From: Eledone cirrhosa
Lineage: Eukaryota
Reading direction: 5' to 3'
Length of the DNA stretch: 64,000 bases
NCBI GenBank assembly: GCA_964016885.1
Contig: CAXHJY010001324.1
Coordinates: 1 to 64,000, forward strand
Below, piece after piece: positions 5,928-61,897 of the stretch (positions within the stretch are counted from its first letter, which is position 1; every line of letters starts with the position of its first letter). The notes under the pieces were generated by a model. The model was not told where the DNA came from and ran no database searches. It was given only the letters and a program-made list of their open reading frames with translations. The translations under genes were made by a program, and so were the position numbers.

Positions 5928-6108
5928 AATTCATTTATTATGGCTAAATAGTGAGTCTTCTTAATCAAGAGTTTCACGTACTTGCTCGCAGGGTCATCAG
6001 GCAAGCAGGAGAAATTCCAGAATAACAAGACTCACAAATTACCCGTAATAAATGAATATTTAAACTCTATTTTGGTATTGAGTACTCTCTTCTCTTTCCC
6101 ATCAAGTA
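5928..6108. mobile_element. Old fold-back element family P7 with decayed hammerhead
   Basis: Diverged arms attcatttattatggctaaatagtgagtctt / aagactcacaaattacccgtaataaatgaat; minus-strand CTGATGA...GAAA; related tails at about 2056-2147 and 37135-37230. Confidence 0.5.
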
Positions 6109-15369: not shown

Positions 15370-16340
15370 TAATCAAGATCAGGTAACAAGACATGTACTA
15401 GGCCTACGTCCATTAGAAACTGTTGTGAAGAAAATCTTTGCGACAGACCTTTATGGGTTATTTTGCTTCTTACAGATTTTGTTTCCAACCTTCATTCCTT
15501 TTTCAAAATGATGAATCAATATTTCATAATCTTGTTAAACTGCTGAAACTGTTTGCACTGAGCTAGATGCTCACCCAATGCCCACAACTCAACCTCTTTT
15601 GAAAACGTGATAGTTAAAAGGCATATCTAGACATTTGATTTTGATTTAGAGGTAATCTGTTGTAAGCTGTCTACATTTTATCCCTAAATAATTGAAGATA
15701 ATTAACTCCATGAATTTATCTTACCAAATCATGGACTGCAGTTTCTACTCTCTGATGAAGACAGTGCCAAGTTATCACCTCAGACTAATGTGTTCCATGA
15801 GAATTGTTGCAACACTAGGTTTGAGATCAAGCATAATACTCGAACCATCACTAGAAAATGCTACATGATTCTACTTCAAATTAGCAAACCTATAATTTAC
15901 GAGACAGTTCAATAGATGCCTATCATTAATTGCAGCTTTCTGATCTGGCATTTTAATGAGGCCTAAAAACATAAAACTAGGTAACACTTTATTTATCACA
16001 TCCACATTTCAAATAAACCACCATGAAGGTCTTATTGCTCAATGTTGCTGCTTGATTCATCAATGAGAATAGTTAGTTTGCCATTTATATGCTTGATATA
16101 CTGGTAAATTTTCATTTTCAAGTTAATGGCGATGTGATTAATTATCTCTCAGACATTAATGCAGGAATGTAGTTCAATTTCTGTCTTAATATCATTATCC
16201 ATTTGAAGTTCCAGTAAGCCAAAGTGATCAGAGTACAATCTGTCATTCCCAGTTAAATAATATGCAGAAGGAAAGATTAAACAATTTATTTGTCTTTAGA
16301 TGTGAAGTATTAATGGTGTCCCATAATTTTCCAAGAGCAT
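15370..16340 (-). pseudogene. Decayed hAT transposase (KIAA1586/ZNF862-like)
   Basis: Hand translation across stops and frameshifts: KLTILIDES, MVVYLK, FMFLGLI, VAFSSDGSSIML, VITWHCLHQR, FLMDVGL. Confidence 0.75.
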
Positions 16341-16664
16341 CTTTACTTGCTCTTATATTCTACCACTTGAGCTACAGTGTGAGCTTTTGATAGTTTATGA
16401 TCAACAATTTATTTTCCATTCTGAGAGACCTCAAGCATGTAATTTAATCAGTTCCATAATAAGACTCTTCATACATCTAACATTCATTTGACAGACTTGA
16501 ACCGCTTCACATTGCAACTGTTTGGTCATACTTTTCACCCACATTTATCATCCTTCGCGTCTATCTAGGGATTCGGTTTCCTTCGTTTTCTTACATATAT
16601 ATTTGTAGACCTAACACTTGTGTGTGTGTGTAAATATTGTCATCATTATTTTACATGTGTGTAA

Positions 16665-16930
16665 AATAAAGTACCAGTAATACACTGGCTAATTGCTGGC
16701 CTGGTGCCTAAAGTAGAAACAATTATTTTACATGTGTGTGTGTAAAATAATGGTTTCTACTTTAGGCACGAGGCCAGCAATTTGGTGTTGGGAGAAGAAG
16801 GAAGTCGATTAAATCGACCCCAGTGCATTACTAATAAAATAAAGTACCAGTAATGCACTGGAGTCGATTTAATCGACTTACCCTCCCCGAAATTGCTGGC
16901 CTTGTGTCTAAAGTAGAAACCATTATTTTA
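16665..16930. mobile_element. Three S1 3'-tail fragments in alternating orientation
   Basis: + / - / + tails (aattgctggcct..gtgcctaaagtagaaac) joined by ttattttacatgtgtgt..taaaataa-type spacers. Confidence 0.7.
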
Positions 16931-17054
16931 CACACACGTCTGTGTGTATATGTATGTAGGTATATATATATATATGTATATGTATGTATATATATATATA
17001 TGTATGTATGTATATATATATGTATGTATGTATATATATATATATATATATATG

Positions 17055-17301
17055 TAATAAACAACATAAGGCAATTATTCCATTTACCAGTGGTTTCTTA
17101 AAAGCAAAAAATTTTGCTTTCAATTCTCAGAATGAAAAAAATCCTGGTCATTCTGAGGATTGAAAGCAAAATCTTTTGCTTTTAAGAAACCACTGGTAAA
17201 TGGAATAATTGCCTTATGTTGTTTATTAGATAACTATTAAGCTCTGTTACCTACATAGAGCACTCTTTTTTCCTGGACTTTTCCGACGGAATTACTTCAT
17301 T
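17055..17301 (+). mobile_element. Fold-back Penelope-like end (P1)
   Basis: Inverted arms 17055-17135 and 17148-17228, unique 3' tail, hammerhead present, TA flanks. Confidence 0.7.
17148..17203 (+). ncRNA. Type-I hammerhead ribozyme
   Basis: tcatt-CTGAGGA-ttgaaagcaaaa(tc)ttttgcttttaa-GAAA-ccactgg-TA-aatgg; GUA cleavage triplet; the inverted copy at about 17080-17135 has core CTGAGAA. Confidence 0.8.
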
Positions 17302-17319
17302 TATATATACATATATATA

Positions 17320-17498
17320 TAATTGTTTCTACTTTAGGCACAAGGCCAGCAATTATCCAGTGCATTACTGGTACTTTATTTTATCGACCCCGTAAGGATG
17401 AAAGGCAAAGTCAACCTCGGCGGGATTTGAACTCAGATCGTAAAGGGACGTAACTATGCTGGAAAGCATGGCGTCCGACCCTCTACCGATACTGCCAA
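17320..17498 (-). mobile_element. SINE S1
   Basis: Near-identical to the reverse complement of 41972-42155. Confidence 0.85.
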
Positions 17499-17524
17499 GA
17501 GAGAGAGACGTACGCACACATAAT

Positions 17525-17566
<42 letters not shown>

Positions 17567-17570
<4 letters not shown>

Positions 17571-18214
17571 CTTTAAGTCGTTTGGAAGCCTCGACAATGC
17601 AAATGGGTAAATCTCCGGGTAACAAGATACGGTGGTGGAGAGAGAGAGAGATGTAAGTGGGTGAACGTTGATATGCGTGGCGTGTATAAGACGTGTAGAG
17701 GAATGAAGGATAAAAATAACAACACGAGAGAGAGTTACCTTGGGAGAGATTTAATTGTCCCTATATATTTCGGATTCACATCCATCAACTGGGTTTTTTT
17801 TCCGGGGTGGGGGAAAGGTTATCTGTCAGAAAGGTGCGAAACGCGTCCTCCGCTTTTCAAAACAACGAACAGCGGAGGACGCGTTTCGCACCTTTCCGAC
17901 AGACAACTTTTCCCCCACCCCGGAAAAAAACCCCAGTTGATGGATGTGAATCCGAAATATATAGGGACAATTAAATCTCTCCCAAGGTAACTCTCTCTCG
18001 TGTTGTTATTTTTATTTTTATCCTTTATGCTCTATCCTTCATTCCTCTACACGTCTTATACACGCCAAGCATCTCAACGTACACCCACTTACATCTCTCT
18101 CTCCACCACCGGATCTTGTTACCCGGAGATTTACCCATTTGCATTGTCGAGGCTTCCAAACGACTTAAAGAAATTTACCTTATCATTCCACAATGCTTCA
18201 AGCAAACTTCAATA

Positions 18215-18219
<5 letters not shown>
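17567..18219 (+). mobile_element. Fold-back element (P2) with about 290-bp arms
   Basis: Arms 17567-17858 and 17867-18174, short unique tail, (TA)n on both sides, hammerhead-like motifs. Confidence 0.65.
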
Positions 18220-18284
<65 letters not shown>

Positions 18285-18549
18285 GCGTACTCACACATAA
18301 TATATATATATATATATAAATATATTTCGTTTCTGAATTTGTTTAGCAAGATTCTTTATCTGAAATCGTGTGTTGAAACCGATATTGTTATACTTTGGGA
18401 GGGTCATGTTGCCAATAAGAAACACACGCACCAGTTGCTTTCACTTCAATTTATTATATATTTATAAATTTACAAATTTACAAATCTACAAACTTATAAA
18501 TTTCTGGTTGGTTGGTTGGTTCCACAACCAGATAGTTGTTTATATATAT

Positions 18550-18594
18550 AGTCATAGTCCTTTCGTCACACACTCTGTGACCTCTTCAGTGACT
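18550..18594 (-). ncRNA. Minimal type-I hammerhead ribozyme (inverted copy)
   Basis: Exact reverse complement of 18971-19015. Confidence 0.85.
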
Positions 18595-18970
18595 GGGGAT
18601 TCCTTTCTTCGTTTCTGTGCCTTTCCTTTCTTCTATCCTACGACATTTTGTTTCTGTGTGTGTGTTGTGTGCTCAGTTTGCGCATGTGCCACATCCGGGT
18701 GTCTGTTTGTGTTCATTTTTCTATTTTTCTATTTATATATATTTTTTTATTTTTTTATTTTTTTTTTTATTTTTTTTTATTATTTTTTTTTTTATAAATT
18801 AAAAAAAAAAATATATATATATATAAATAGAAAAATAGAAAAATGAACACAAACACACACAGATACCCGGATGTGGCACATGCGCAAACTGAGCACACAA
18901 CACACACACAGAAACAAAATGGCGTAGGATAGAAGAAAGGAAAGGCACAGAAACGAAGAAAGGAATCCCC

Positions 18971-19015
18971 AGTCACTGAAGAGGTCACAGAGTGTGTGAC
19001 GAAAGGACTATGACT
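18971..19015 (+). ncRNA. Minimal type-I hammerhead ribozyme
   Basis: agtca-CTGAAGA-g-gtcaca(gagtg)tgtgac-GAAA-ggac-TA-tgact: stem I 5 bp, stem II 6 bp, minimal stem III. Confidence 0.85.
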
Positions 19016-19332
19016 ATATATATAAACAACTATCTGGTTGTGGAACCAACCAACCAACCAGAAAATTATAAGTTTGTAGATTTGTAAATTTATAAATATA
19101 TAATAAATTGAAGTGAAAGCAACTGGTGCGTGTGTTTCTTATTGGCAACATGACCCTCCCAAAGTATAACAATATATAAATATATATATATGTATATATA
19201 TATGTATATAAATATATATATATATGTATATAAATATATATATATATGTATATAAATATATATATATATGTATATAAATATATATATATATGTATATAAA
19301 TATATATATATATGTATATAAATGTATATATG

Positions 19333-20673
19333 TAACTTTGAATAACTTTGAAATGTTTTGGCCAGTATTGGCCCAGGCCATGTCTAATTTAATAGCACCA
19401 CCTGGCGAAGTCTTTCAATTCAGGATTTGGGCACCATGGCCCATTCGAGAAGAGAATTACTGTTTGCGGAGACATATCCGGGTGTGGGTGGTTTGTCCGG
19501 GATTACTTGGGGGAATTTGTCCAAAGACTTCTTGAATTTTGTGTGGTCAGTTTCTGTTTTGACGTGTCCTGGTGTGATGTTGAAGAGAGCAGGGCCAATT
19601 GAGGTGAAATAATTGTGCCGTATTGTTGTTATGAGTTGCGATTTAGATTTTTGTATGGGACGGATAGCACGGGGCCCAAGCCTTGGGTGTATCTTGAAGG
19701 TGATGCCAACATCATTTGGGCAGTGATGATGGAACATTTTCCACATCATGCAGATAATATAACGCTCACGGCGACGTTGAAGTGAGTAAAGTTTCAGCTT
19801 TTCTATTCGACCCCAGTAGTCAAGGTCTGACATGCCATCTATCTTTTTCGTGATTGCCCTTTGAGGAGCTTCAAGTTTCATGATACTTTGTTTCGTGTGG
19901 CGAGACCACAGTGGACAACAGTATTCAAGGTGTGGTCGGGCAAAAGTAGAGAAGAGAAGGATAATGGTGTGGGAATCTCTCGACTGGAAGGTTCTGAGGA
20001 TCCAGGAACACATTCTGCGGGCCATGTCAACTTTGCTGCTTATATGCGTGGCCCAGCTTATGTTGCTGTCCACGGTTACTCCCAAGTCTCTGATGTTGTT
20101 AGATGCCACGAGAGTTTCCCCGGGTTGGGTTCTGTTTGACAGGAAGCTCTTGATCCACTGCAGCAGCTTTCCAGTGACACCAATATTGGACAGTTTTCTC
20201 AGTAGAATGTTATGATCAACCCTGTCAAAGGCCTTGCTGAAATCAAGGTAGATAACATCAGTGTTGGAACCCTCTCCCAAGGCTCTCAAAATGTCATCAA
20301 AGTGATGCAGTAGCTGCGTCAGGCAATCTCTTCCATTACGGAATCCATGCTGGTTGGAGTTCAGCATATTGTTACTCTCAAGGAAGTGGGTCATTCGCGA
20401 TCTCACCACTCTCTCAAATACCTTAATGATATGAGAGGTGAGTGAGATTGGACGGTAATTCACGGCAAGGGATTTGTTTCCCTTTTTTGAAAACTGGGAC
20501 AACAGACTGGGATAGAAGGTTTTCTGGCACATATCCAGCATCCAGTGAGTTCCGCCACAGATTGGCAAGAGGAGATGCAAGTTGGTGTTGACACGCCTTC
20601 AAGACACAAGCAGGGAACCTATCGGGACCTACTGCTGAATTATGCTTGATTGCCTTTATTGCCGCTAAGACAT
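19333..20673 (-). pseudogene. Same LINE, copy A, internally deleted and frameshifted RT
   Basis: Junction NRTQ/PGETL lacks 324 bp (copy C 26011-26334) including PQG and FADD; one extra T in the run at about 20483-20488. Confidence 0.92.
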
Positions 20674-21101
20674 AGATACATGTATATAGATATATGTATA
20701 TATATATAGATATATGTATATATATATAGATATATGTATATAGATATATGTATATAGATATATGTATATAGATATATGTATATAGATATATGTATATAGA
20801 TATATGTATATAGATATATGTATATAGATATATGTATATAGATATATGTATATAGATATATGTATATAGATATATCTATATAGATATATCTATATAGATA
20901 TATCTATATAGATATATCTATATAGATATATGTATATAGATATATGTATATAGATATATGTATATATGTATATGTATATAGATATATGTATATATGTATA
21001 TAGATATATGTATATAGATATATGTATATATGTATATATATATAGATATATGTATATAGATATATGTATATGTATATAGATATATGTATATAGATATATG
21101 T
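20674..21101. repeat. 14-bp TATATAGATATATG satellite
   Basis: Tandem units visible directly; the same unit occurs at 27087-27525. Confidence 0.9.
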
Positions 21102-22639
21102 ATAATTCAGCAGTAGGTCCCGATAGGTTCCCTGCTTGTGTCTTGAAGGCGTGTCAACACCAACTTGCTTCTCCTCTTGCCAATCTGTGGCGGAACTCAC
21201 TGGATGCTGGATATGTGCCAGAAAACCTTCTATCCCAGTCTGTTGTCCCAGTTTTCAAAAAGGGAAACAAATCCCTTGCCGTGAATTACCGTCCAATCTC
21301 ACTCACCTCTCATATCATTAAGGTATTTGAGCGAGTGGTGAGATCGCGAATGACCCACTTCCTTGAGAGTAACAATATGCTGAACTCCAACCAGCATGGA
21401 TTCCGTAATGGAAGGGATTGCCTGACGCAACTACTGCATCACTTTGATGACATTTTGAGAGCCTTGGGAGAGGGTTCCAACACTGATGTTATCTACCTTG
21501 ATTTCATCAAGGCCTTTGACACGGTTGATCATAACATTCTACTGAGAAAGCTGTCCAATATTGGTGTCACTGGAAAGCTGCTGCAGTGGATCAAGAGCTT
21601 CCTGTCAAACAGAACCCAACATGTTGTAGTTGAGGGAGTCAAATCAAGCCCAGCCAAAGTCAGCAGTGGAGTCCCACAAGGCACTGTGTTGGGCCCACTT
21701 CTCTTCATCATCTATATTAATGACATCACTGACATCATCAAACACAGCAACATTAAAATTTTCGCTGATGATTCCAAGCTCCAAAAGGTCATCAATGGCG
21801 TGGATGACCGGATAAGCCTTCAGTCAGACCTACTGGCTGTTACCCAATGGGCAGAAAAGAACAACATGTTACTGAATGAAGACAAATTCGAACTGATCCA
21901 CTTTGGAAAAGAGGATGCTCTGAAACTCCCGTACTCCGGGGAAACTCTCGTGGCATCTAACAACATCAGAGACTTGGGAGTAACCGTGGACAGCAACATA
22001 AGCTGGACCACGCATATAAGCAGCAAAGTTGACATGGCCCGCAGAATGTGTTCCTGGATCCTCAGAACCTTCCAGTCGAGAGATTCCCGCACCATTATCC
22101 TTCTCTTCTCTACTTTCGCCCGACCACACCTTGAATACTGTTGTCCACTGTGGTCTCCCCACACGAAACAAAGTATCATGAAACTTGTAGCTCCTCAAAG
22201 GGCAATCACGAAAAAGATAGATGGCATGTCAGACCTTGACTACTGGGGTCGATTGGAAAACCTGAAACTTTACTCACTCCAACGTCGCCGTGAGCGTTAT
22301 ATTATCTGCATGATGTGGAAAATGTTCCATCATCACTGCCCAAATGATGTTGGCATCGCCTTCAAGATACACCCAAGGCTTGGGCCCCGTGCTATCCGCC
22401 CCATTCAAAAATCTAAATCGCAACTCATAACAACAATACGGCACAATTATTTCACCTCAATCGGCCCTGCTCTCTTCAACATCACACCAGGACACGTCAA
22501 AACAGAAACTGACCACACAAAATTCAAGAAGTCTTTGGACAAATTCCTCCAAGTAATCCCGGACAAACCACCCACACCCGGATATGTCTCCGCAAACAGT
22601 AATTCTCTTCTCGAATGGGCCATGGTGCCCAAATCCTGA
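21098..22639 (+). CDS. LINE reverse transcriptase fragment, 513 aa (ATG comes from the flanking microsatellite)
   Basis: PQG and FADD motifs present; 9-bp in-frame deletion (LPS) relative to copy C; [11 protein letters not shown] variant. Confidence 0.85.
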
Positions 22640-22726
22640 ATTGAAAGACTTCGCCAGGTGGTGCTATTAAGTTAGACATGGCCTGGGCCAATACTGGCCA
22701 AAACATTTCAAAGTTATTCAAAGTTA
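21102..22726 (+). mobile_element. Same LINE, 5'-truncated copy B
   Basis: Matches copy C; same 3' tail tcaaagttattcaaagtta; 5' end abuts the TATATAGATATATG tract. Confidence 0.93.
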
Positions 22727-22866
22727 TATATAGATATATGTATATATATGTATATGTAGATATATGTATATATATGTATATGTATATATATGTATATGTA
22801 GATATATGTATATATATGTATATGTATATATGTAGATATATGTATATATATGTATACATATGTAGA

Positions 22867-22902
<36 letters not shown>

Positions 22903-22939
22903 GAAGGATTTAAATGGATACAGTTTAGTTAAAAGGAAT

Positions 22940-23060
22940 TTATTGACACGTGTTTCAATAACAGTTACAAAACCTGAAAACAGCTGCTATCTACAAAGTA
23001 TTCGTTATGCAGACATTCAATATTTCAATGTTATTATCAACTGTCATTTCATCAGAATAA
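22940..23060 (-). ncRNA. Type-I hammerhead ribozyme (inverted copy of 23555-23675)
   Basis: Core and stems identical; the few substitutions lie inside the stem-II insertion. Confidence 0.82.
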
Positions 23061-23554
23061 TTTTACTGTCTATACGTGTGTATATAAAGATAAGTTGAGT
23101 ATGAAAATGTATACACATGAATGCGTATGTATGTACATGTATATATGTATATATATATATATGTGCATGTGTATATGTATGTAAGTATGAGCATGTAAGT
23201 ATGTGTATGTGAGTATATGTATTTTGTAGAGGTGTGCATATATGTTTGTGTGTGAATGCTTGGGCGAAAGGATACGTACACTTGAAAGAAAAATTTAAGT
23301 TTGAATGTTAATTAAGTGCAAACACAAAACCAACCATGCATATCTATACTATCTCTAATCCTTCTATAGATTTAGAAAAATAACCAATAATATACTCTAT
23401 TAAAAATGTCAAAACAACAGATGGGAATCTAATTACTCACTGCCACCAAAAATTCTCACTGCTATCAAAAATCCACTCCCTCAACTATTATTCTAACAAC
23501 TTCACCCCTCCCTCCTAATATTCTCTATAAAAACCAAACAGGTCCTCAGTAAAA

Positions 23555-23675
23555 TTATTCTGATGAAATGACAGTTGATAATAACATTGAAATATTGAAT
23601 GTCTGCATAACTAATACTTTGTATATAGCAGCTGTTTTCAGGTTATGTAACTGTTATTGAAACACGTGTCAATAA
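23555..23675 (+). ncRNA. Type-I hammerhead ribozyme with long stem-II insertion
   Basis: ttatt-CTGATGA-aatgacagtt...aactgttatt-GAAA-cacgtg-TC-aataa; palindromic stem III; predicted cleavage after C23670. Confidence 0.82.
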
Positions 23676-23826
23676 ATTCCTTTTAACTCAACTGTATCCA
23701 TTTAAATCCTTCTATTTTTCTCCGGATTACTTTTGGAACTACAACAGGAACCGTCGAGCAAACTCTACGTGAGCTGTCCATCTACTGTGTATAATATTTA
23801 TATTACAACACTACGGAAAATACTAT

Positions 23827-23864
23827 ATGCATATGTATATGTATATATGTATATGTATATAAAT

Positions 23865-23901
<37 letters not shown>

Positions 23902-24000
23902 AATATATATATATATAAATATATATATATATAAATATATATATATATAAATATATATATATATAAATATATATATATATAAATATATATATATATAAAT

Positions 24001-24058
<58 letters not shown>

Positions 24059-24066
24059 GTATATAA

Positions 24067-24145
<79 letters not shown>

Positions 24146-25161
24146 AATATATATATGTATATATGTATATATATATATGTATATAAATATATATATATGT
24201 ATATATGTATATAAATATATATATATGTATATATGTATATAAATATATATATATGTATATATGTATATAAATATATATATATGTATATATGTATATAAAT
24301 ATATATATATGTATATATGTATATAAATATATATATATGTATATATGTATATAAATATGTATATATGTACATAAATGTATATATGTATATATGTACATAA
24401 ATATATATATATATATATGTATATATGTATATAAATATGTATATATGTATATAAATATATATGTATATAAATATGTATATATGTATATATGTATATATGT
24501 ATATATGTATATAAATATATATGTATATATGTATATAAATATATATGTATATAAATATATATGTATATATGTATATAAATATATATGTATATATGTATAT
24601 AAATATATATGTATATATGTATATAAATATATATGTATATATGTATATAAATATATATGTATATATGTATATAAATATATATGTATATATGTATATATGT
24701 ATATATGTATATAAATATATATGTATATATGTATATAAATATATATGTATATATGTATATAAATATATATGTATATATGTATATAAATATATATGTATAT
24801 ATGTATATAAATATATATGTATATATGTATATAAATATATATGTATATATGTATATAAATATATATGTATATATGTATATAAATATGTATGTATATATGT
24901 ATATAAATATGTATGTATATATAAATATGTATGTATATATGTATATAAATATATATGTATATAGATATATATATATATGTATATATGTATATAGATATAT
25001 ATATATATGTATATAGATATATGTATATGTATATAGATATATGTATATATGTATATATATGTATATGTGTATATGTATATGTGTATATGTATATAGATAT
25101 ATGTATATAGATATATGTATATGTATATAGATATATGTATATATGTATATATATGTATATG

Positions 25162-25192
<31 letters not shown>

Positions 25193-25219
25193 ATGTATAT
25201 GTATATATGTATATGTATA
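23827..25219. repeat. 1.4-kb complex TA-derived satellite
   Basis: (TA)n with periodic AAA and TG; 24-bp unit tatataaatatatatgtatatatg in the middle. Confidence 0.95.
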
Positions 25220-27049
25220 TAACTTTGAATAACTTTGAAATGTTTTGGCCAGTATTGGCCCAGGCCATGTCTAACTTAATAGCACCACCTGGCGAAGTCT
25301 TTCAATTCAGGATTTGGGCACCATGGCCCATTCGAGAAGAGAATTACTGTTTGCGGAGACATATCCGGGTGTGGGTGGTTTGTCCGGGATTACTTGGAGG
25401 AATTTGTCCAAAGACTTCTTGAATTTTGTGTGGTCAGTTTCTGTTTTGACGTGTCCTGGTGTGATGTTGAAGAGAGCAGGGCCGATTGAGGTGAAATAAT
25501 TGTGCCGTATTGTTGTTATGAGTTGCGATTTAGATTTTTGAATGGGACGGATAGCACGGGGCCCAAGCCTTGGGTGTATCTTGAAGGCGATGCCAACATC
25601 ATTTGGGCAGTGATGATGGAACATTTTCCACATCATGCAGATAATATAACGCTCACGGCGACGTTGGAGTGAGTAAAGTTTCAGGTTTTCCAATCGACCC
25701 CAGTAGTCAAGGTCTGACATGCCATCTATCTTTTTCGTGATTGCCCTTTGAGGAGCTTCAAGTTTCATGATACTTTGTTTCGTGTGGGGAGACCACAGTG
25801 GACAACAGTATTCAAGGTGTGGTCGGGCGAAAGTAGAGAAGAGAAGGATAATGGTGCGGGAATCTCTCGACTGGAAGGTTCTGAGGATCCAGGAACACAT
25901 TCTGCGGGCCATGTCAACTTTGCTGCTTATATGCGTGGTCCAGCTTATGTTGCTGTCCACGGTTACTCCCAAGTCTCTGATGTTGTTAGATGCCACGAGA
26001 GTTTCCCCGGAGGGAAGGGAGTACGGGAGTTTCAGAGCATCCTCTTTTCCAAAGTGGATCAGTTCGAATTTGTCTTCGTTCAGTAACATGTTGTTCTTTT
26101 CTGCCCATTGGGTAACAGCCAGTAGGTCTGACTGAAGGCTTATCCGGTCATCCACGCCATTGATGACCTTTTGGAGCTTGGAATCATCAGCGAAAATTTT
26201 AATGTTGCTGTGTTTGATGATGTCAGTGATGTCATTAATATAGATGATGAAGAGAAGTGGGCCCAACACAGTGCCTTGTGGGACTCCACTACTGACTTTG
26301 GCTGGGCTTGATTTGACTCCATCAACTACAACATGTTGGGTTCTGTTTGACAGGAAGCTCTTGATCCACTGCAGCAGCTTTCCAGTGACACCAATATTGG
26401 ACAGCTTTCTCAGTAGAATGTTATGATCAACCCTGTCAAAGGCCTTGCTGAAATCAAGGTAGATAACATCAGTGTTGGAACCTTCTCCCAAGGCTCTCAA
26501 AATGTCATCAAAGTGATGCAGTAGTTGCGTCAGGCAATCCCTTCCATTACGGAATCCATGCTGGCTGGAGTTCAGGATATTGTTACTCTCAAGGAAGTGG
26601 GTCATTCGCGATCTCACCACTCGCTCAAATACCTTAATGATATGAGAGGTGAGTGAGATTGGACGGTAATTCACGGCAAGGGATTTGTTTCCCTTTTTGA
26701 AAACTGGGACAACAGACTGGGATAGAAGGTTTTCTGGCACATATCCAGCATCCAGTGAGTTCCGCCACAGATTGGCAAGAGGAGAAGCAAGTTGGTGTTG
26801 ACACGCCTTCAAGACACAAGCAGGGAACCTATCGGGACCTACTGCTGAATTATGCTTGATTTCCTTTATTGCCGCCAAGACATCAGGGGCGCCAAACGTT
26901 ATGTCCGATAAGGTGTAATGGGGAGTAACATCGCCGATACAGCCCAGATCGGCCATATCAGGATTGCTGAAAACAGAGCAGTATTGTTTCTGCAGTATCT
27001 CACCCATGGTTTTAGCATTGTCTTGAAGAGTGCCATTTTCATCAATTAG
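25220..27049 (-). mobile_element. Non-LTR retrotransposon (CR1/Jockey-group LINE), 5'-truncated copy C
   Basis: RT ORF plus 3' UTR ending in (TTCAAAGTTA)x2; near-identical to copies A and B; flanked by TA-type microsatellites; no endonuclease domain. Confidence 0.93.
25307..27007 (-). CDS. LINE reverse transcriptase, 566 aa, uninterrupted but N-terminally truncated ORF2
   Basis: Motifs [56 protein letters not shown]; frame stays open upstream to about 27049. Confidence 0.92.
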   Translation of the reverse strand: MGEILQKQYCSVFSNPDMADLGCIGDVTPHYTLSDITFGAPDVLAAIKEIKHNSAVGPDRFPACVLKACQHQLASPLANLWRNSLDAGYVPENLLSQSVVPVFKKGNKSLAVNYRPISLTSHIIKVFERVVRSRMTHFLESNNILNSSQHGFRNGRDCLTQLLHHFDDILRALGEGSNTDVIYLDFSKAFDRVDHNILLRKLSNIGVTGKLLQWIKSFLSNRTQHVVVDGVKSSPAKVSSGVPQGTVLGPLLFIIYINDITDIIKHSNIKIFADDSKLQKVINGVDDRISLQSDLLAVTQWAEKNNMLLNEDKFELIHFGKEDALKLPYSLPSGETLVASNNIRDLGVTVDSNISWTTHISSKVDMARRMCSWILRTFQSRDSRTIILLFSTFARPHLEYCCPLWSPHTKQSIMKLEAPQRAITKKIDGMSDLDYWGRLENLKLYSLQRRRERYIICMMWKMFHHHCPNDVGIAFKIHPRLGPRAIRPIQKSKSQLITTIRHNYFTSIGPALFNITPGHVKTETDHTKFKKSLDKFLQVIPDKPPTPGYVSANSNSLLEWAMVPKS

Positions 27050-27481
27050 ATATGTATATGTATATTATATACATATACAATTAGAATGTATATAGATATA
27101 TGTATATAGATATATGTATATAGATATATGTATATAGATATATGTATATAGATATATGTATATAGATATATGTATATAGATATATGTATATAGATATATG
27201 TATATAGATATATGTATATAGATATATGTATATAGATATATGTATATAGATATATGTATATAGATATATGTATATAGATATATGTATGTATATAGATATA
27301 TGTATGTATATAGATATATGTATGTATATAGATATATATATGTATATCGATATATATATGTATATAGATATATATATATGTATATAGATATATATATATA
27401 TATGTATATAGATATATATATATATATGTATATAGATATATATATATATATGTATATAGATATATATATATATGTATATAG

Positions 27482-27525: not shown

Positions 27526-27780
27526 ATTACACTAATCTAAATATAGCAGGGTGAACGCTGTGGGATTTTAAGTATTTACATGCATATACAATGTTACTGT
27601 TAGGGACCAATGTCAGAACATTTTACTAATAGTTTCAGATAGTCGACAATAATAGAAGTAAAGTCAATACAATTATAATTATGTCCTAAATGTGCTTATA
27701 ATTTCAGACTAATTATTCCTATGTTGTTCTCCAAACCACAGGGATAAACAGTGAAAGTTGTTCGGTTACAATTATAAAAA

Positions 27781-27834
27781 TACCGTTTTCCCTATAGTCA
27801 TATATATATATATATGACTATAGGGAAAACGGTA
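27781..27834. repeat. Palindrome centred on a TA run (P8)
   Basis: taccgttttccctatagtca-(TA)n-tgactatagggaaaacggta; the adjacent 27850-27903 segment recurs inverted at about 58868-58920. Confidence 0.7.
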
Positions 27835-27948
27835 ATTTTATTTATGGTCTTTAAAGCGATGAAACACCAATGATGGTTGGAAGATCACTGATGAAGGACT
27901 AACTTTATTCATATGTAACCCATTAGCAACCCAGCAGCACGTTTTTCT

Positions 27949-27981
<33 letters not shown>

Positions 27982-28022
27982 GCACATGCACGATGCTCTA
28001 GCGTATCACCAGCTAACATTAA

Positions 28023-28432
28023 GGGCGGTGGATTGGCAGTATCAGTAGAGGGTCGGACGCCATGCTTTGCAGCATAGAGTTACGGCCCTTGCCATTCTGA
28101 GTTCAAATCCCGCCGAGGTTAACTTTGCCTTTCATCCTTACGGGATCGATAAAATAAAGTACCAGTAATGTACTGGGTCATTGCTGGCCTTGTGCCAAAA
28201 GTAGAAACAATTATATTTGTATACCCAAGGGCGGTGAATTGGCAGATTCTGTAGAGCGTCGGACGACATGGCTTGCTGCATACTTAAGAGACTTTACGTT
28301 CTGAGTTCAATTCTCGCCGAGGTTAGCGTTGCCTTTCATCCTCACGAGGTCGATAAAATTAAATACCAGTAACGCACTGGGGTCGAATTTCCCATCCACC
28401 AAAATTGTTGGCCTTGTGCCTAAATGAAAAAC
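28023..28432 (+). mobile_element. Two tandem S1 SINEs (28023-28213 and 28229-28432)
   Basis: Two heads (ggcggtggattggcag / ggcggtgaattggcag), each with B-box and tail. Confidence 0.85.
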
Positions 28433-28507
28433 CAGTATTATTATTATTATTACAATCATTACAGATGAATAATATACTCCCACTGAATAATATATATACA
28501 TACATAT

Positions 28508-28711
28508 ATAGGAAAAGAGTCAGAATCCCGACGGCAGAGCTCAAGCCGTTTCGACAGCTATTTCTGGACTGTCCAGAAATAGCTGTCGAAACGGCTTGAG
28601 CTCTGCCGTCGGGGTTCTGACTCCTTTTCTATTACCCACTCTACTAGCCAAAGTATCGAGCACTCTGTTGCGTTATGGTCCACCTGGTTCCTTACCACAC
28701 TTCCTTCGTTA
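28508..28711 (+). mobile_element. Palindromic element family P6, best-preserved copy
   Basis: Near-perfect palindrome centred on T28570, unique tail ending ccttcgtta; contains the 3' half of a hammerhead (GAAAcggc...gccgTC). Confidence 0.72.
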
Positions 28712-28727
28712 CACACACACACACCCA

Positions 28728-37717: not shown

Positions 37718-38080
37718 AATTGTTTCTACTTTTGGCACAAGGCCAGCAATTTGAAGGGAACGGGCTAAGTCGATTAAATCGACCAAAGTGTGTTACTGGT
37801 ATGTCTTTATCGACCCCCGTAACGATGAAAGGCAAAGCTAACCACGGCGGGATTTGATATGAAGAATAAAAATAAAGCAATATTATTAATCCATGGCGGT
37901 GAATTGGCAGTATCGGTAGAGGGTCGGATACCATGCTTTGACGCATAGAGTTACGGCCCTTGCCATTCTGAGTTCAAATCCAGCCGAGGTTAACTTTACC
38001 TTTCATCCTTACGGGGTCGATAAAATAAAGTACCAGTAATGCACTAGGTAATTGCTGGCCTTGTGCCAAAAGTAGAAACA
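37718..38080. mobile_element. S1 SINE pair: partial minus copy 37718-37857 and full plus copy 37895-38080
   Basis: Homology to S1; TSD attattaatcc around the plus copy. Confidence 0.82.
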
Positions 38081-40499
38081 ATTATTAATCCTTGTCAGTG
38101 TTAATATAAACAATATGGATAAAGTGTGTATGTCGGAGAAGGTATGTGGACGTATGTTTGACTGATAGAGAATCTAAATATAATCATAAAATTACTAAAT
38201 TGCCAGACATTTCTATTAATGAAAAACATTTTCACACAGAAAGCATAATCAAGACACATGCGTATGCATACACACAGACACGCGCGCGCACACACACACA
38301 CTGAGATAGACAGACAGGCATAATGCATCCATATACGCACATATATAAATGTTTACATACATTTATATGTATTTGTGTGTATGTACATATATGTATAAAC
38401 ATACATGTATGTATTCATATAAACATGCATAAACATACATAGGTCTCTCTCTGTACGTATCTATGTGTGTATAAATTTAAATTAGAAATGATAGAAAAAA
38501 TGTTAAACTGCTGATTTTACATGCTATAGAAAGAGCAAATACATTTAAGAATAGTCGTGTTCTTGAAATTGCCGCAAATATAAACACTTTGGTACATTAA
38601 AATATATTGATCTCTGACTGTTTAATGTAAATGACTTATTTTTAAGTTTCATACTCTATACATTCAGTTTTTAAATTCCTATTTGTTTAATGTATGTAAA
38701 ATATTGTATAGCGAAACTTTAAGACTTATATAGCCGCCATTAATATCTATTCAGCTTCTATTAAAATATCAATTTCATTGAAAAGAAGAAAAAAATATAA
38801 TTCAAAAAGAGACAAGAATTTAAGATATGTTTGAATGTAGAGTAACAGATAAATAACTGAAACTATCGAAGTTTCATACAATCCCATACAAGAGCTTAAA
38901 TCACAAGAATATCATAACAATATACTTGAAAAATATTCTTTAAAAAAAAAAAGAAATAAAAGCAACTGCTGCTCCAGCATACTTATGTTAAGATAGTTTT
39001 GAAGAACTTCAGATATACAAAAAAAAAAAAATATTCGGTTCTCTTTCATTTATGTACTTGTAATTTAAAAAAAGATATATATATTGTCCAAGAATTCACT
39101 TTAAATATTTTCAAGTAAAGAAAAGAAACTATAAAAATATAACCTTAAAATGTCTGATGTAACTTTGTATATTTTTATATATTCATTTTGTATTACTTAA
39201 AGATATTTTAAGAGCTGTCTGGAAGCTCTTGATCTTTTGGTTCTTAAGTGCTAAAATTGTGCTATGATCATGTTTATGGAATATAGTTTTTTGCGTATGG
39301 TTGTAAAAGTTGTAAGAGACATGTAGCAGTTAATTGTGAAGAAAAAGTAGATAAATTGAAGCAGAAATATTTCAAGTAAAAGAATGAAATAACTTCTGAT
39401 TGAGATTAAAAAATGAAGCAAAATATATTAGTTTCACTCTTTCTATACCCCCAGAAACATATCAGGCACAAGTGTTTTTGCTTTTATTTTATCCATCTAG
39501 CATTTTATCAATTTTATAAAAAAAGAGAACGTATATGTTATTTTTATAAAGTAAAGGAACATTTAACGAAATATCAATTTGATTTCATTGAAACATCAAC
39601 ATTTATACATTTTATATAAACAGAAAAAATTATGTATATCTATAAAGTTAAACTATATTCATAAGTTATTTGTCACTTAATTATGCATTTTATAAAAATA
39701 ACTTTGGAACTGAGAGTAGTAGTATTAACATATTTCATAATAATATATTCATATTTCAACTAATTCAATGTTTAGCACGGTTTTTAAATGTGAGAAAGAG
39801 GAAACGTGAATGTGAAAGAATGCATTTTGAAATAGGTTTTGTCTGTAAAATTGAAATAAATGGGAGGACGTATTCTTTCAGACAAGCTAGGAACCCGTTG
39901 GAAAAAAAGATATACACATCACACGAGATAAGAACGGATATATTTTTAAGTGGAGGCATCAAGAAGAAATTACTTATGGTTAGTTTGATAAACTTGAGAG
40001 AGAATTAGCTAAACAAAAATTACATTAGTGTTATTCAGTGTCATATTAGATTTGCTAACAGTTTTTCAAAATTGAGATCACTTTAGTTATGTTGCTCTTT
40101 AAACAGTGACGTTCTTAGGATTGCGTTCCTTCCAGTTAGATTTCACGAATAAGATTGCCCATAAATAGTTTGAATAGGTAATGTTATTTGTAAGAGTGAA
40201 ATGAAGATATTTAACTTGAAGAATCTAACGTCTCCGCTGAAAGCGGTAAATAGTGTGTCTTTCGCATATAGCACAACGCATAAGTACATAAGTTGAAAGT
40301 ACTACATATCATTTTTAAATATTTCTGTAGAGACCCACACGGAAGTGTCAATCTCGGCTGCAGTGAATGTATTCTGAAGGCACTGTCTGCTGATGTTGTT
40401 TATTTTCTATTATCAAATGCATGTTTCTTTAGTAGCAAGCTCTTGCTTCTCTCTACCTCTTAAACACACACCTAGTTCCAGCCTCTAGCAAAAACAACC

Positions 40500-41124: not shown

Positions 41125-41971
41125 GTATATAATAAAGTAGCAGTTTATCCTATGATGGCATACAATTTAATAAAAGATAAAACACTATCTGATATAAAAG
41201 TTTCCAAAAGAGGAGAATTTTAGATATTATTAGGTTTTAAATGGCGGTCCTGATTAAAAATAAAACTATATATCTCTCTCTCTCTTTGTATATACACTCA
41301 AACACTAAATCAAATCCAGTTCACTTGTGTTTGCCTTACTTATAAATATAACGGAAAGTCAATAGCTTAAGTAGACAAAAGGTAGAGTATATTTACTGTT
41401 ACAAGAAACTGATGAAAATAAAAAAAAATAGAAATATGATAAACAGTGATTAGATTTACATTTTCAAATGTTGTAGTTTTTCCTCTTTGTTTCAGGTAAT
41501 AAACATATTTTGTCTAACTTTAACTTGGTGTAGAGAAAGGCAAACACATATTCATGGAAAGATTGTACATTACATTTGTCATACTGGTATGGTTTACTTT
41601 CCTTCTTTCTTCTTCTCCCTTAAAAGTAGCTATTTTGTTTGTATTATTGAAATTATTGAAAAAAAATGCTTATTTATTCATTTTTAATATTCTTTGAATG
41701 TGGAATATATCCCCCTGAAGTCAGTTTAGCAAATGGCAAGTGACAGTCGATATTAAACATGTCCCCTAGATACGATAATGCATGCATATTTATATCATTT
41801 GCCTATAGGGCAAATTATAGTCTATTCTTTGTTTAAACGGTATTACATATATCAAACTATTATTTTTCGAAACGACAAAACGTTAGTTTAAGCAGCTATT
41901 TAGGCCGTTGAACGAGAATATTATTGTTCTTTTTATTGCACTATCATGCAAGTACATTATTTAATTTTAGA

Positions 41972-42155
41972 GGCGGTGGATTGGCAGTATCGGTAGAGGG
42001 TCGGACGCCATGCTTTCCAGCATAGTTACGTCCCTTTATGATCTGAGTTCAAATCCCGCCGAGGTTGACTTTGCCTTTCATCCTTACAGGGTCGATAAAA
42101 TAAAGTACCAGTAATGCACTGGGTAATTGCTGGCCTTGTGCCTAAAGTAGAAACA
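41972..42155 (+). mobile_element. tRNA-derived SINE (family S1, Nin/Deu-like central domain), full length with TSD
   Basis: B-box gagttcaaatcc; gactttgcctttcatcctt..gggtcgataaaataaagtacc domain; 16-bp TSD attatttaattttaga at 41956-41971 and 42156-42171. Confidence 0.88.
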
Positions 42156-43028
42156 ATTATTTAATTTTAGAATTTGTAGTTAAACATGAATGATATATAG
42201 TTAAAATAAATTGAAAATATACAATCTTTTTATGCTACCTTACATAAATATCGATGGTAAACAGACGTATATGAAAGATATTTAACTTCATTCAAACCCA
42301 CGAATTTGTCGAAATAGTATTTAACAACTGATGCTTACAATGCAATATATACACGTATACTACAATGGAGTGTGTCTGACAGAACTCGTGTGCATTAAAT
42401 CAATATTCATAATATGATTCTGAGCTCAGTACTAAAAGCTACTGAAATATTTGTTGAATATTGAACAGATAACTACGCCGCACCTCCATGGTGTATATTA
42501 TCAGTTTGGTAAACTGGTAATTCGAAATTGAATTATTTTCATTACGGATATAATGCAAAATTAGTTACCCAGATTATTATATTAGTACAGAATAAATATA
42601 ATATATATGCACGTATAGGCACATAGTTATGCATGTACACTGAATCCTCAATCTAGGAAGTACTTTATAAAGACAACACCAGTAATTAAATGTAATATAA
42701 CTCCATATTATAACTGAGAATCTATTTATTTTCATCTATAATTAATTCAATAATTATGGTGGACGAAACTTTACCACTAATAAATCTGTGTCTCTTAAAC
42801 GTCCATGTCTTGTTTTGATTTTTGTTAAAATTCCATGTGTGGAAACATAATTATAGAGTTGGAATACTTCTGTTGTCACATCAAAGCAATAAAAAAAAAA
42901 AAGCTAAAGTATAGGTTTCAGTAACAAACTGATTTCCTGTGTTAGAAAACGAAGAGGAGTTCCACCCGCAGAAGAAAATAAACATAGAAAGAATGTTTTA
43001 GTCTTCGTAGTATCGCGCGCTCTCTCTC

Positions 43029-46008: not shown

Positions 46009-46196
46009 TAGGTCCCGGGTTGAGTCGGGGATAACCACAGTAAGTAAGGTACTCAATACATGGCAGAGTAAATTTTTTTTATTTTATAGAAGGAGCTTCT
46101 ACAGGACTAGTACTGTTTCATTCAGCTTCCTGAAGATTTCATCTGAATGAAACAGTACTAGTCCTGTAGAAGCTCCTTCTATAAAATAAATAAAAA
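46009..46196. mobile_element. Fold-back Penelope-like end (P5)
   Basis: Arms 46078-46125 and 46143-46190; hammerhead spans the axis; TA flanks. Confidence 0.65.
46124..46174 (+). ncRNA. Type-I hammerhead ribozyme
   Basis: agcttc-CTGAAGA-tttcatctgaat-GAAA-cag(tactagtc)ctg-TA-gaagct; stem I 6 bp, stem III 4 bp, weak stem II with T-T closing mismatch. Confidence 0.72.
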
Positions 46197-46398: not shown

Positions 46399-47126
46399 TA
46401 CCCACTCCACAAACTAATTTTACACTCACATATTAATATGCATATATGCATGATTTTGCGTCTGAATTTTACGTGATAAAAATAAAAATGAACGTAAATG
46501 AAAATATACACGTATATAACTAATATGATGCTAACAGAGGTTACATAATGAAATGTGTCATTTTTCATCTTTCACTCCTCAGAAAGTTGCCATACTTTCT
46601 TTTTTTTTTTACTTCGCTCTCTTGATGCTTTTATATGTTTTAATTTTCGTATTTTCTGCTTTGTAATTTTTGACATGGTGTCATCGAATATTTTGACTAC
46701 AAAATATCCAGTTTATTTTGTTTTTGTCATTTTGTCAGACAACAACACGTATTTCTCGGATATATATGTGAACACAAGACTCTCTCTCTCCCTCTCACTC
46801 TCTCTCCCTCCCTCTCTCTCTCTCCACACATAGAGGCTAGGATGCTGTAAATTATAGACGAAAATAATACATTTATATACGATATACGCGATATATTACT
46901 GAAAGTACGTAACAGATCTGTTTGCAGGAATTGAGACAGGCAATCTATTGTTACTCTCTCCCAGTATGGAGAGATAGAGATTGATATTTACATAAATCTA
47001 GAATATTCATAAATTATAAGAAAACTTTTATATTAATGAATATTCTAAAACTGATATATATTTAGTAAGAAGCATAAGGAATCATGGAATAATAAAAAAA
47101 AACAGCAATAATAATAAGGGAATAAT

Positions 47127-47539
47127 TGTTTCTACTTTTGGCACAAGGCCATCAATTACCCAGTACATTGCTGGTACTTTATTTTATCGACCCCGTAAGG
47201 ATGAAAGGCAAAGTTAACCTCGGCGGGATTTTATCGACACTGTAAGGATGAAAGGCAAAGTTAACCTCGGCGGGATTTTATCGACCCCGTAAGGATGAAA
47301 GGCAAAGTTAACCTCGGCGGGATTTTATCGACCCCGTAAGGATGAAAGGCAAAGTTAACCTCGGCGGGATTTTATCGACCCCGTAAGGATGAAAGCCAAA
47401 GTTAACCTCGGCGGGATTTTATCGACCCCGTAAGGATGAAAGGCAAAGTTAACCTCGGCGGGATTTGAACTCAGACCGCAGTAACTATGCTGGAAAGCAT
47501 GGCGTCCGACCCTCTACCGATACTGCCAATCCACCGCCC
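47127..47539 (-). mobile_element. S1 SINE with internal 6 x 47-bp tandem amplification
   Basis: Unit attttatcgaccccgtaaggatgaaaggcaaagttaacctcggcggg at 47181-47462; imperfect TSD taataataagg.aataat. Confidence 0.88.
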
Positions 47540-47787
47540 TAATAATAAGGTAATAATGTTTTGTTTTGACTAAAGAAGAGAATGTTATTAAAACTATCCT
47601 AGAGTTCAATGATTTTTGTTATTGATCGGTACAGTATTCGATTTTATTTTATGATTTTTTTTTCATCTTCAAATGTATATTAGAACAAATTCACCTTTTA
47701 GATATTGAAATAGATAAGTGTACATTTGTGTTGGAATATTAAGCTCCGAATCTTTTCTTTTGTTATATATCCAGTGCATCACTTTAT

Positions 47788-52200: not shown

Positions 52201-52326
52201 AATGTGTGTGTGATAGTCATTGTGCGTATGTTTCAGAAATATAGAGACGGATGGTGAGTCCTTGTTAGAAAGAGACTGGGTGTGTACACGTATGTGTGAT
52301 TCTCAGACCATGAAAGAGGAGAAATA

Positions 52327-52511
52327 ACTGTTTCTACTTTAAGCACAAGGCCAGCAATTACCCAGTGCATTACTGGTACTTTATTTTATCGACCCCGTAA
52401 GGATGAAAGGCAAAGTTGACCTCGGCGGGATTTGAACTCAGATCGTAAAGGGACGTAACTATGCTGGAAAGCATGGCATCCGACCCTCTACTGATACTGC
52501 CAATCCACCGC
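52327..52511 (-). mobile_element. SINE S1
   Basis: Homology to S1; flanking tgaaagag(ga)gaaataac-like duplication. Confidence 0.85.
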
Positions 52512-54528: not shown

Positions 54529-54586
<58 letters not shown>

Positions 54587-54589
<3 letters not shown>

Positions 54590-54783
54590 CGAAGGAGGTG
54601 TAGTAAGGAACCAGATGGGCCATAACGCACCAGAGTACTCAATACTCAATAGTAGTAGAGTGGGTAATAGGAAAATGTATGACCCCGACGGCAGAGCTCA
54701 AGCCATTTCGACAGGTATTTCTGGACCTAGAAATAGCCGTCGAAACGGCTTGAGCTCTGCCGTCAGGATAATACATTTTGCTA
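54587..54783 (-). mobile_element. Family P6 copy
   Basis: Reverse-complement homologue of 28508-28711 with the axis in the same hairpin; TA flanks. Confidence 0.7.
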
Positions 54784-56483
54784 TATATATATATATATAT
54801 CAATTACAAATATATTGAAATGTAATCCCAGGAATATTTCATTTTCCTGATATCCCGATTTCTTGTAGGAAACCTTCAGAAGGTACAACGACAGATACAC
54901 ACACACTTTGTTTTTGTTTTCTTGATTAACTATAATATATATATATATATGAGAGAGACAGAGAGAGAGAGTGATTATATGTATAAACACACGTACATCA
55001 TATATATTGATAGTTATATTCAATAGATACAGTAGTAAGAAATGGCGGAATATATTATACTCATTTATTAGGTTAAATAGATAATATAAACATCCATCGA
55101 AATTCGTTAATTAATTTCCCACTCGTTCGTATTATACACGTCATCTTCGAATCCCTTGGTCAATTTTTAATTAATACTATCAGAATTATCACCAGGCAGC
55201 ATTGATCTGGTTATTGCATAAATGGAGAATAAGTTGTAATGAGTATATACTGTAAGTTATGTTAAGTTGTGCTGTTTAAACAAGGAGAGAATGGTAGTGG
55301 CCAATGCACTTTTCAGAATGTCCGTGACGAGGAAGGGGACATCCCTACATCGGAGGCCTGACTGTAATGCTTACAATACAGTGGTCTCCACTAAAGACAC
55401 CGAACCCTCAGTAGGTGGGGTTTAAACAACTAATAGATTGACATATTAGATCTATCACACAACTACACCAAGATATATGTTCTAATCAAACCGCAAAGAG
55501 CCGAAACAAATACTACACAATCTTTCGCTTGACGTTCTATTTGTTTCGCCCATCTACCGTGTTCAGGATTATTTGTACGTAGATAATAATTATAAATAAT
55601 TATAGTTATGATGGTGTTGTTACTGATAATGATACTGATGATGATGTTAATAACAGTAGCAGTAGTGGTGATGATGATAATAAAGCTAGTCACGATGAAG
55701 ATGCTGATGATGATATTAACGTTCTTATGTGTTAAACTGGAGAGAATTGTGACTGAAATAGGAGGAGATGGGAGATAATAATTGTCGGAAGCGGAGTGAT
55801 CACTTTGACAGCAATTAGTGCTTCTCGTACTTTCCTGTAACGAATGTGATAACGTCAGCGGTCTTTATCACGGTCGATAAACCTAAACGTCTTCTTCATT
55901 ATAATCAAGCCGAATCCATCCGAAGTGACAGTTTCCGCTTGGTAACGTGGTAAGAAATGATGCTCTTTTTCACCGGGTCTCAGGTGGTGCGCGCGCGCAC
56001 ACACACTATCTCTCTCTACCTCTCCCTCTTTCTCTTTTTGTCTTCCCCTTGTTGATTACCGAGAGAAAATGGGAGATGTAGATATCAGATATCAGGAATA
56101 GGTACCGCTGAAGAAAATTTGAAATGCAATGACCTCCAAATAGCTTCTGCATCATGCATATTTTCAATTGGCATACATAACAACAGCTTGAGGCAACAAG
56201 TATATTCTTGCCATAATTTACTCTACCTTGCATATATTATATATATATATATATATATATTGACGGTAAGATAAGAAAAATGTTTATGAACATCGTAATA
56301 TTTTTATTACAGGATGTGGCATGGGCCATTCAATCAAGAAGTCATCATTCCTTCTGAATAAATTATTTAATCAAACAGACAGGATTTTAATGAATACACA
56401 CTGAGCTAACATATGAAAGTGATAATACGGTCTATCATGGAAAATTCACTCTAGAATTATCCCTTAATTCCGAGTAAATATAT

Positions 56484-56898: not shown

Positions 56899-57258
56899 CG
56901 AGTAAATATATTATAGTAATAATTGTAATGAATAGAACTGTGTAACACCAAAGAAGTTTGAACTAAGGGAAGCATCTTAGTTAGTGTGCCATGACCGATT
57001 TACTCTAGTCTATTGAGTACAACCGCGAAACTAACTGAATAAGCTGAGGCGAGAACCAAACTGAGTTAGGTGACAAGGAGTGAAGCAGAAAGCAATAACA
57101 TCATTTATCCACTCATCCATGTAACTAAACATCTAGCCGTCCATACATATATACACACATATATACATGCATGCGTACAAATATGCGTATTTCTTGGAGT
57201 GAAGTATACAAAATCACGTGTGAACTTTGCATATATACTCATATATATATATAATATA

Positions 57259-57433
57259 ATAGTTTCTACTTTTGGCACAAGGCCAGCAATTATCCCAGTG
57301 TATTACTGGTGCTTTATTTTATCGACTCCGTAAGGATGAAAGGTAAAGTTAACCGGTGGGATTTGAACTCAGACCATAAAGGCCCGTAACTCTGTGATGC
57401 AAAGCATGGCATCTGACCCTCTACCGATACTGA
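57259..57433 (-). mobile_element. SINE S1
   Basis: Homology to S1. Confidence 0.8.
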
Positions 57434-61591: not shown

Positions 61592-61897
61592 ATACAAATG
61601 AATATATGATAGGGATAAACACTGATACAAGTATACATGTGTTTGCATTGCAAATGACCAATATAGGTTTGTTTTTATTGATTTATTATTTTAAACCGAG
61701 ACTGGCAAACCGTATTATTTTAATTAGTATTTTTCAATCTGGCTAACTTGGTCATTTGCAATGCGAACACATGTATACTTGTATCAGTGTTTATCCCTAT
61801 CATATATTCATTTGTATTACACGGCTCAGAAATATCCTTTTCTTTGAGCTATTTAATTGTAAAAGACTATTTGAGTTTATAACTCTATATATAATAT
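61592..61897 (+). repeat. Inverted repeat (about 68-bp arms) with unique tail (P9)
   Basis: tacaaatgaatatatgatagggataaacactgatacaag...tgaccaa mirrored at about 61748-61815. Confidence 0.65.

Follow-up and report, generated by a model that had tools for sequence, protein, structure and literature searches.

Minimal hammerhead ribozymes of Penelope-like elements (PLEs) were defined in PMC4209133 with an architecture that matches the motif described here. Their metazoan consensus has a helix I of 4-5 bp, an unpaired base before helix II and the pair G10.1-C11.1. That study, published in 2014, also reports pairs of minimal hammerheads on opposite strands, about 100-700 bp apart, in S. mansoni, and a truncated Cotesia element with a second, opposite-strand motif at its 5' end; cleavage of monomers was not found there, and dimer cleavage was low. 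An inverted 5'-truncated copy, a one-ended tail of 30-40 bp and a bias towards microsatellites are given as general PLE traits in PMC8557442, which describes Penelope-13_HM as having the same hammerhead on each strand owing to an inverted 5'-truncated copy. According to PMC3846280, head-to-head is the commonest orientation, a palindrome lies at the junction, and self-priming was proposed as its origin; the pseudo-LTR (pLTR) in that report holds 12 codons of the ORF start, or 22 when the tail is included. For the anole PLE, PMC11167929 reports that the protein acts on both strands of AT-rich DNA, which it cuts and extends, that reverse transcription starts at two internal sites which delimit the tail, and that insertion in vitro did not depend on the hammerhead, which cleaved only in the presence of the protein. 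The origin of the inverted pLTRs and the role of the hammerhead are stated as open questions in PMC8557442 and PMC11167929. For Octopus vulgaris, 31 recently active Penelope-like families are described in PMC13282606, whose available text does not mention ribozymes. Retrozymes are built as tandem direct units (PMC7229834; bioRxiv 10.64898/2026.07.22.740005).

Here we describe a palindrome with a hammerhead on each strand in a 64-kb window, the whole stretch of Eledone cirrhosa DNA that was analysed. The palindrome is most likely a severely 5'-truncated PLE, consisting of a pLTR and its inverted copy, in a TA repeat.

Arms, tail and hammerheads

The palindrome, placed at 18325-19175 by the earlier note, is real, with arms of ~380 bp at 18382-18761 (left) and 18796-19175 (right), whereas the first 57 nt of that interval (18325-18381) belong to an extension of the left arm only. 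Pairwise alignment bore out the near-identity of the arms, with 366 of 372 aligned bases matching and 6 substitutions and 4 gaps in total. The A/T-rich centre accounts for 3 of the substitutions and two 1-nt gaps. Outside it, the arms differ by 3 substitutions over ~317 sites (0.9%, Poisson 95% interval 0.2-2.8%), by a 6-nt CA-repeat indel and by an 8-nt tandem-unit indel. The young insertion that had been deduced from this identity is plausible, but the dating is soft because adjacent inverted arms may be homogenised.

The arms are arranged head-to-head, their sense strands running outward from the centre. We interpret the long left arm (minus strand) as a 5'-truncated pLTR with outward-pointing sense, and the short right arm (plus strand) as its inverted 5'-truncated copy, which abuts a TA-type microsatellite directly. 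The A/T-rich inversion junction (18762-18811, no strand assigned) includes a T11-A-TAAAT-T-A11 hairpin at ~18783-18811, and its exact register is ambiguous owing to low complexity. The left flank (18273-18324) is composed of (GA)n, a short unique stretch and then the (TA)n target microsatellite; on the right (19176-19331), the TA-type microsatellite runs into the 3' end of an unrelated minus-strand LINE. Both outer ends of the palindrome thus lie at (TA)n or TA-type microsatellites, and no target-site duplication is readable in this flanking sequence. The 57-nt tail (minus strand), which we take as the 3' end of the element, has no counterpart on the right arm and no second copy anywhere in the 64-kb window, and the window contains no second copy of the element. 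We considered that the LINE at 19172 had cut the right arm and moved the missing 57 nt elsewhere, and rejected this explanation: as the window holds no second copy of the tail, the adjacent LINE did not displace it.

The presence of identical hammerheads on both strands, as proposed in the earlier note, was confirmed letter for letter. The 45-nt motif AGUCA-CUGAAGA-G-GUCACA(GAGUG)UGUGAC-GAAA-GGAC-UA-UGACU occurs at 18550-18594 on the minus strand (copy 1) and at 18971-19015 on the plus strand (copy 2), the two being spaced by 376 bp. Its 5' part comprises a 5-bp helix I, the CUGAAGA box, an unpaired G and a 6-bp helix II closed by G10.1-C11.1; the 3' part contains GAAA, a helix III of A-U and G-C with a 2-nt GA loop, and the CUA site. 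Following standard hammerhead numbering, cleavage is predicted after CUA, between 18555 and 18554 in copy 1 and between 19010 and 19011 in copy 2. The motif therefore has the features of the minimal type I PLE hammerhead, i.e. the CUGANGA, GAAA and UH core, helices I and II, G10.1-C11.1 and an unpaired base between positions 9 and 10.1, and it lies inside the pLTR in sense orientation, the sense direction being set by the tail and a putative ATG.

To place these matches against chance, the whole window was scanned with a hammerhead descriptor that allowed G-U pairs. It returned 3 matches, namely the two arm copies and a further motif at 17148-17203, and in each of them stems I and II reached at least 5 bp. 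A mean of 0.08 matches was obtained for 100 block-wise dinucleotide shuffles, and stems of that length arose in 1 of the 100. Rfam models identified no hammerhead at the gathering score or at E up to 10 (window, 16000-20000 and the 111-nt motif region), and what the scans did return were generic miRNA hairpin models that fell short of their thresholds. The 45-mer is no more stable than its shuffled versions (z = -1.37, with equally good folds in 17 of 200 shuffles). As there is no Rfam match and the folding energy is unremarkable, we base the identification on the catalytic boxes and the stems. In bacterial and archaeal genomes the exact pattern of the motif does not occur, as expected.

A possible, weak ORF start of the element is found on the minus strand (18324-18407), where the ATG at 18407 is followed by 28 open codons to the end. 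About 9 codons of this putative ORF lie in the pLTR, the number rising to 28 with the tail; on the right arm, just the first 26 nt of it remain (19150-19175). An equivalent frame through the tail arises in 5.5% of 5000 shuffles, which is not significant alone. No homolog was found in Pfam, in longer proteins or, with a limit of E up to 0.001, in a set of 1.84 billion representatives, although a blank carries little weight for a query of ~40 aa; the best ESM Atlas score was 0.79, a level also reached by shuffled proteins, and none of its peptide words were found in the available supplement of PMC8557442. A neighbouring frame at 18093-18221, also a query of ~40 aa, gave no homolog. In Pfam searches with the 148 longest of the 255 non-low-complexity frames of the window, no PLE reverse transcriptase (RT) or GIY-YIG domain was detected, and only three LINE RT frames passed the cut-off. 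An intact RT-EN ORF between the pLTRs is absent at the locus, which is therefore not classed as an autonomous element.

Predicted folding of single-arm and read-through RNA

In the minimum-energy fold of the monomer, the partner of the 5' strand of helix I is the region of helix III, at -12.0 kcal/mol compared to -10.7 kcal/mol for the hammerhead, i.e. the alternative pairing is favoured by 1.3 kcal/mol. The probability of stem I ranges from 0.02 to 0.49 in predicted folds, depending on the flanks. These predictions, from folding models without tertiary contacts, magnesium or protein, do not support a stable hammerhead monomer, and almost no activity is predicted for the ribozyme in this form. 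The G15.2-C16.2 pair is present, and loop 3 is GA, which is not a Watson-Crick palindrome. A dimer helix III with tandem G-A pairs was calculated at -1.7 kcal/mol, compared to -1.7 kcal/mol for the commonest 4-bp minimal form and -8.3 kcal/mol for the CG-loop form. A stable double-hammerhead fold is likewise unsupported, the whole fold amounting to -23.3 kcal/mol vs. -31.2 kcal/mol for the two-strand minimum. The short stem III, which the earlier note had compared to dimer-type PLE hammerheads, is indeed of the type described in PMC4209133, but the two ribozymes of the locus cannot dimerize in cis because they are on opposite strands. For activity, the ribozyme would need either the element protein or a second sense copy in trans, with which it would form a dimer through a helix III containing tandem G-A pairs.

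The predicted outcome depends on where transcription starts. For a transcript of the full palindrome, the stem I probability is 0.00. Plus-strand starts up to 18590 also give 0.00, and starts from 18600 on give 0.03-0.47, as in the single arm; the minus-strand start series mirrors this behaviour. In read-through transcription the antisense copy is synthesised before the sense copy, and the ribozyme of such a transcript is predicted to be fully buried. Such RNA would form a hairpin of ~370 bp that buries the ribozyme and could serve as a generic substrate for editing or siRNA production. Transcripts that started within an arm and ran outward, as a pLTR promoter would drive them, are predicted to carry no antisense copy. 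Fold-back sequestration is thus predicted for starts outside the antisense copy and not for plus-strand starts at or beyond 18600.

The complete sequestration predicted for read-through RNA raises the question of whether the palindrome is kept as a functional RNA switch, either to shut off the ribozyme by fold-back or to provide dsRNA or siRNA that silences the family. A precedent exists in transgenic D. melanogaster, where siRNAs corresponding to the inverted regions arose from inverted copies of Penelope (PMC3681739), although according to the same report these siRNAs did not silence Penelope efficiently. Because the monomer is already predicted to be off, there would be little to switch. 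The same geometry is found in many neighbouring palindromes, some of which have no intact ribozyme, and in the palindrome at 17051 the hammerhead of one arm (17078-17137, minus strand) has a core G8-to-A change. We consider a selected switch very unlikely.

Neighbouring palindromes and alternative origins

The window is AT-rich and laden with microsatellites, and contains three LINE pieces and a dispersed repeat of ~190 bp that resembles a SINE. The LINE pieces (19172-27064) are ~95-98% identical to one another, encode RT and have relatives with an AP-type endonuclease; they alternate in orientation, with microsatellites between them, and the first has an internal inversion at ~20123/20124. 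Together they form kilobase-scale inverted repeats, a potential source of dsRNA far larger than the palindrome. The protein of the neighbouring LINE has its highest identity, 61%, to Argonauta hians among the 120 matches listed, which, as a single named row, suggests an octopod host. Copies of the SINE-like repeat are located at 17303-17498, 28020-28217, 28228-28381, 37883-38092, 41954-42163, 47121-47559, 52317-52511 and 57241-57441. Within the repeat, a 47-bp unit is expanded in tandem at 47181-47466, and nested inverted fragments lie at 16662-16948.

From the self-BLAST of the window, 13 local inverted repeats were picked by hand, leaving out LINE-derived pairs. In 9 of the 13, one arm ends at (TA)n and the other continues for 39-147 nt before the next microsatellite, and 4 do not fit this pattern; against the window background, this corresponds to a binomial tail of 3e-5, a rough value because insertions cluster. 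The palindrome at 17051-17232, 1.1 kb away, is also head-to-head, with 85-bp arms (82 of 85 positions matching), hammerheads on both arms and a tail of ~69 nt on the right arm (whole region 17051-17300). Its plus-strand hammerhead (17148-17203, the third descriptor match) is intact and recalls motifs of the Hydra clade, its helix II having 12 bp and its helix III 4 bp; this helix III is like that listed for the octopus element Hydra-1_oBim in PMC8557442.

A third palindrome (17564-18219) has arms of ~300 bp, matching at 281 of 291 positions, and a 42-nt tail with an open frame running through it, for which no homolog was found. Both arms contain a hammerhead-like layout with a 3-bp helix I, a helix II with a GUGA loop, GAAA and a self-complementary helix III. 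In the first core box, CAGUUGA takes the place of CUGANGA, and by sequence these layouts may be dead or a core variant. The element is bracketed by a direct repeat of ~50 nt (17498-17548 and 18273-18325, 88.7% identity by self-BLAST), possibly a long target-site duplication. Between two LINE tails lies an inverted repeat of 169 bp (22900-23068 and 23547-23715, 165 positions matching, 478-bp spacer), both arms of which have a CUGAUGA box and a degenerate hammerhead-like layout. In two short palindromes, at 46073-46195 and 61592-61817, one arm stops at (TA)n and the extensions measure ~66-68 nt; two others, at 27774-27841 and 5929-6057, fall outside this pattern.

A family of four short asymmetric palindromes, at 914, 2265, 28508 and 54667 (spans 914-1050, 2262-2445, 28495-28720 and 54580-54800), allows the ends of independent copies to be compared. 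The short-arm end is common to all four and lies at (TA)n, the long-arm end is common to three of the four, and the centres differ. Two copies have tails of ~78 nt, and the family yielded no complete hammerhead. In the three copies for which both arms could be aligned, inspection by eye revealed copy-specific variants common to both arms. Fixed ends combined with variable centres point to an insertion mechanism rather than to assembly error or random duplication.

These private variants, together with the hairpin-capable A/T junction of the palindrome at 18325-19175, would also fit a different history, in which a solo PLE end was inserted first and the host duplicated it afterwards, through a fold-back or replication-repair event that had nothing to do with retrotransposition. 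The short arm of the four-copy family, however, stops at the same base beside (TA)n each time, and a random event would not do so repeatedly, which makes a host duplication highly improbable. We see even less room for a fold-back or MITE-like DNA transposon with long terminal inverted repeats at a TA site: long, near-perfect inverted arms, TA flanks and the absence of coding capacity are what such an element would display, but one end extends 57 nt beyond the other, hardly any sequence separates the two arms at the centre, and the presence of a complete hammerhead points to an RNA stage. An assembly or library artefact (fold-back chimera) is barely credible, since 3 substitutions and two multi-base indels, all outside homopolymers, set the arms apart and the same architecture, with different centres, recurs in independent copies of the neighbouring family, even though the region is repeat-dense and inverted PLE structures are known to trouble assemblies (PMC8557442).

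A probable truncated Penelope-like end and its known relatives

Taken together, the data make it highly likely that the locus is an abortive insertion of an endonuclease-type PLE, or of a non-autonomous element borrowing its machinery. We are similarly confident that it works like the 3' end of an endonuclease-type PLE and probably derives from one, a parentage that is read from anatomy, as no PLE reverse transcriptase was detected among the frames searched in the window. Based on the published mechanism, the element protein, supplied in trans, would nick the AT-rich or (TA)n target. Reverse transcription would then be primed inside the pLTR-ORF junction of the element RNA, as demonstrated for the anole element (PMC11167929), presumably at the outer of the two start sites, proceed for ~440 nt through the hammerhead and stall in the A-rich tract just beyond. 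A second, inverted copy would be made from the same template, primed either by fold-back of the cDNA onto itself (snap-back) or by the opposite nicked strand, and its ending 57 nt short would leave the tail one-sided. In the neighbouring family, the private variants shared by the arms speak for one template, or else for homogenisation at a later time. The hammerhead would be duplicated simply because the pLTR normally contains it.

The inverted arrangement is thus no special device but something already known to result from PLE insertion, and as no RT or endonuclease gene is attached, the copy is probably a passive, inert relic. By short words, no sequence match was obtained with the octopus Naiad and Hydra entries in the available supplement of PMC8557442. 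The arm family may be uncatalogued, since a search of the literature for octopus and hammerhead ribozymes listed only the Hydra/Naiad paper as relevant.

A more far-reaching interpretation, which we regard as unlikely, starts from ends fixed at the two reverse transcription start sites and variable centres. Head-to-head palindromes with tails would then be a main product of PLE insertion in this genome, abundant enough to record the inversion step, and the helix III with tandem G-A pairs would be a new dimer interface through which divergent transcripts of the arms activate one another in trans, with read-through silencing both. Opposite-strand hammerhead pairs are already in print, and a single locus, as a predicted by-product, matters little. 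Many young palindromic ends in a genome would permit a copy-by-copy test of snap-back against two-strand priming, and if such palindromes do record the inversion step, with both arms from one template, they would constitute a natural record of an unexplained inversion. The GA-loop helix III is a small candidate variant of the ribozyme.

Compared with animal non-LTR retrozymes, the locus is similar in being non-coding, a few hundred bases long and PLE-related, with a type I hammerhead. Unlike them, it carries its ribozymes on opposite strands and has no tandem unit, whereas retrozymes are arranged head-to-tail and release circles between two ribozymes of the same strand; a non-LTR retrozyme identity was rejected because head-to-tail tandem units with same-strand hammerheads are absent. 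The motif itself resembles the metazoan minimal hammerheads of PMC4209133 in its CUGANGA and GAAA boxes, 5-bp helix I and G10.1-C11.1 pair, and, like these, including the Schistosoma mansoni pairs, it has an unpaired base before helix II, a vestigial helix III and an opposite-strand partner at a distance within 100-700 bp. It differs in loop 3, as no GA loop of this kind, i.e. other than a Watson-Crick palindrome, is found among the 56 rows of fig. S3 in that source. The unpaired base is G here, compared to H in the consensus, with G also present in the Nasonia and Hydra-1_oBim rows, and the Marsupenaeus PLE row shares the G-[2 nt]-C-U-A layout with the present motif.

Among the closest known systems are the inverted pLTR pairs of endonuclease-containing (EN+) PLEs (Penelope/Poseidon, Neptune and Hydra, e.g. 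Pen2a_Av and Penelope-13_HM). The locus differs from these in having no ORF body and in the length of its tail, which is 57 nt instead of the usual 30-40. In common with them, it combines a head-to-head inverted 5'-truncated copy with a one-sided tail, a (TA)n target, the same ribozyme on both strands and a sense-strand hammerhead ~160-225 nt from the 3' ends.
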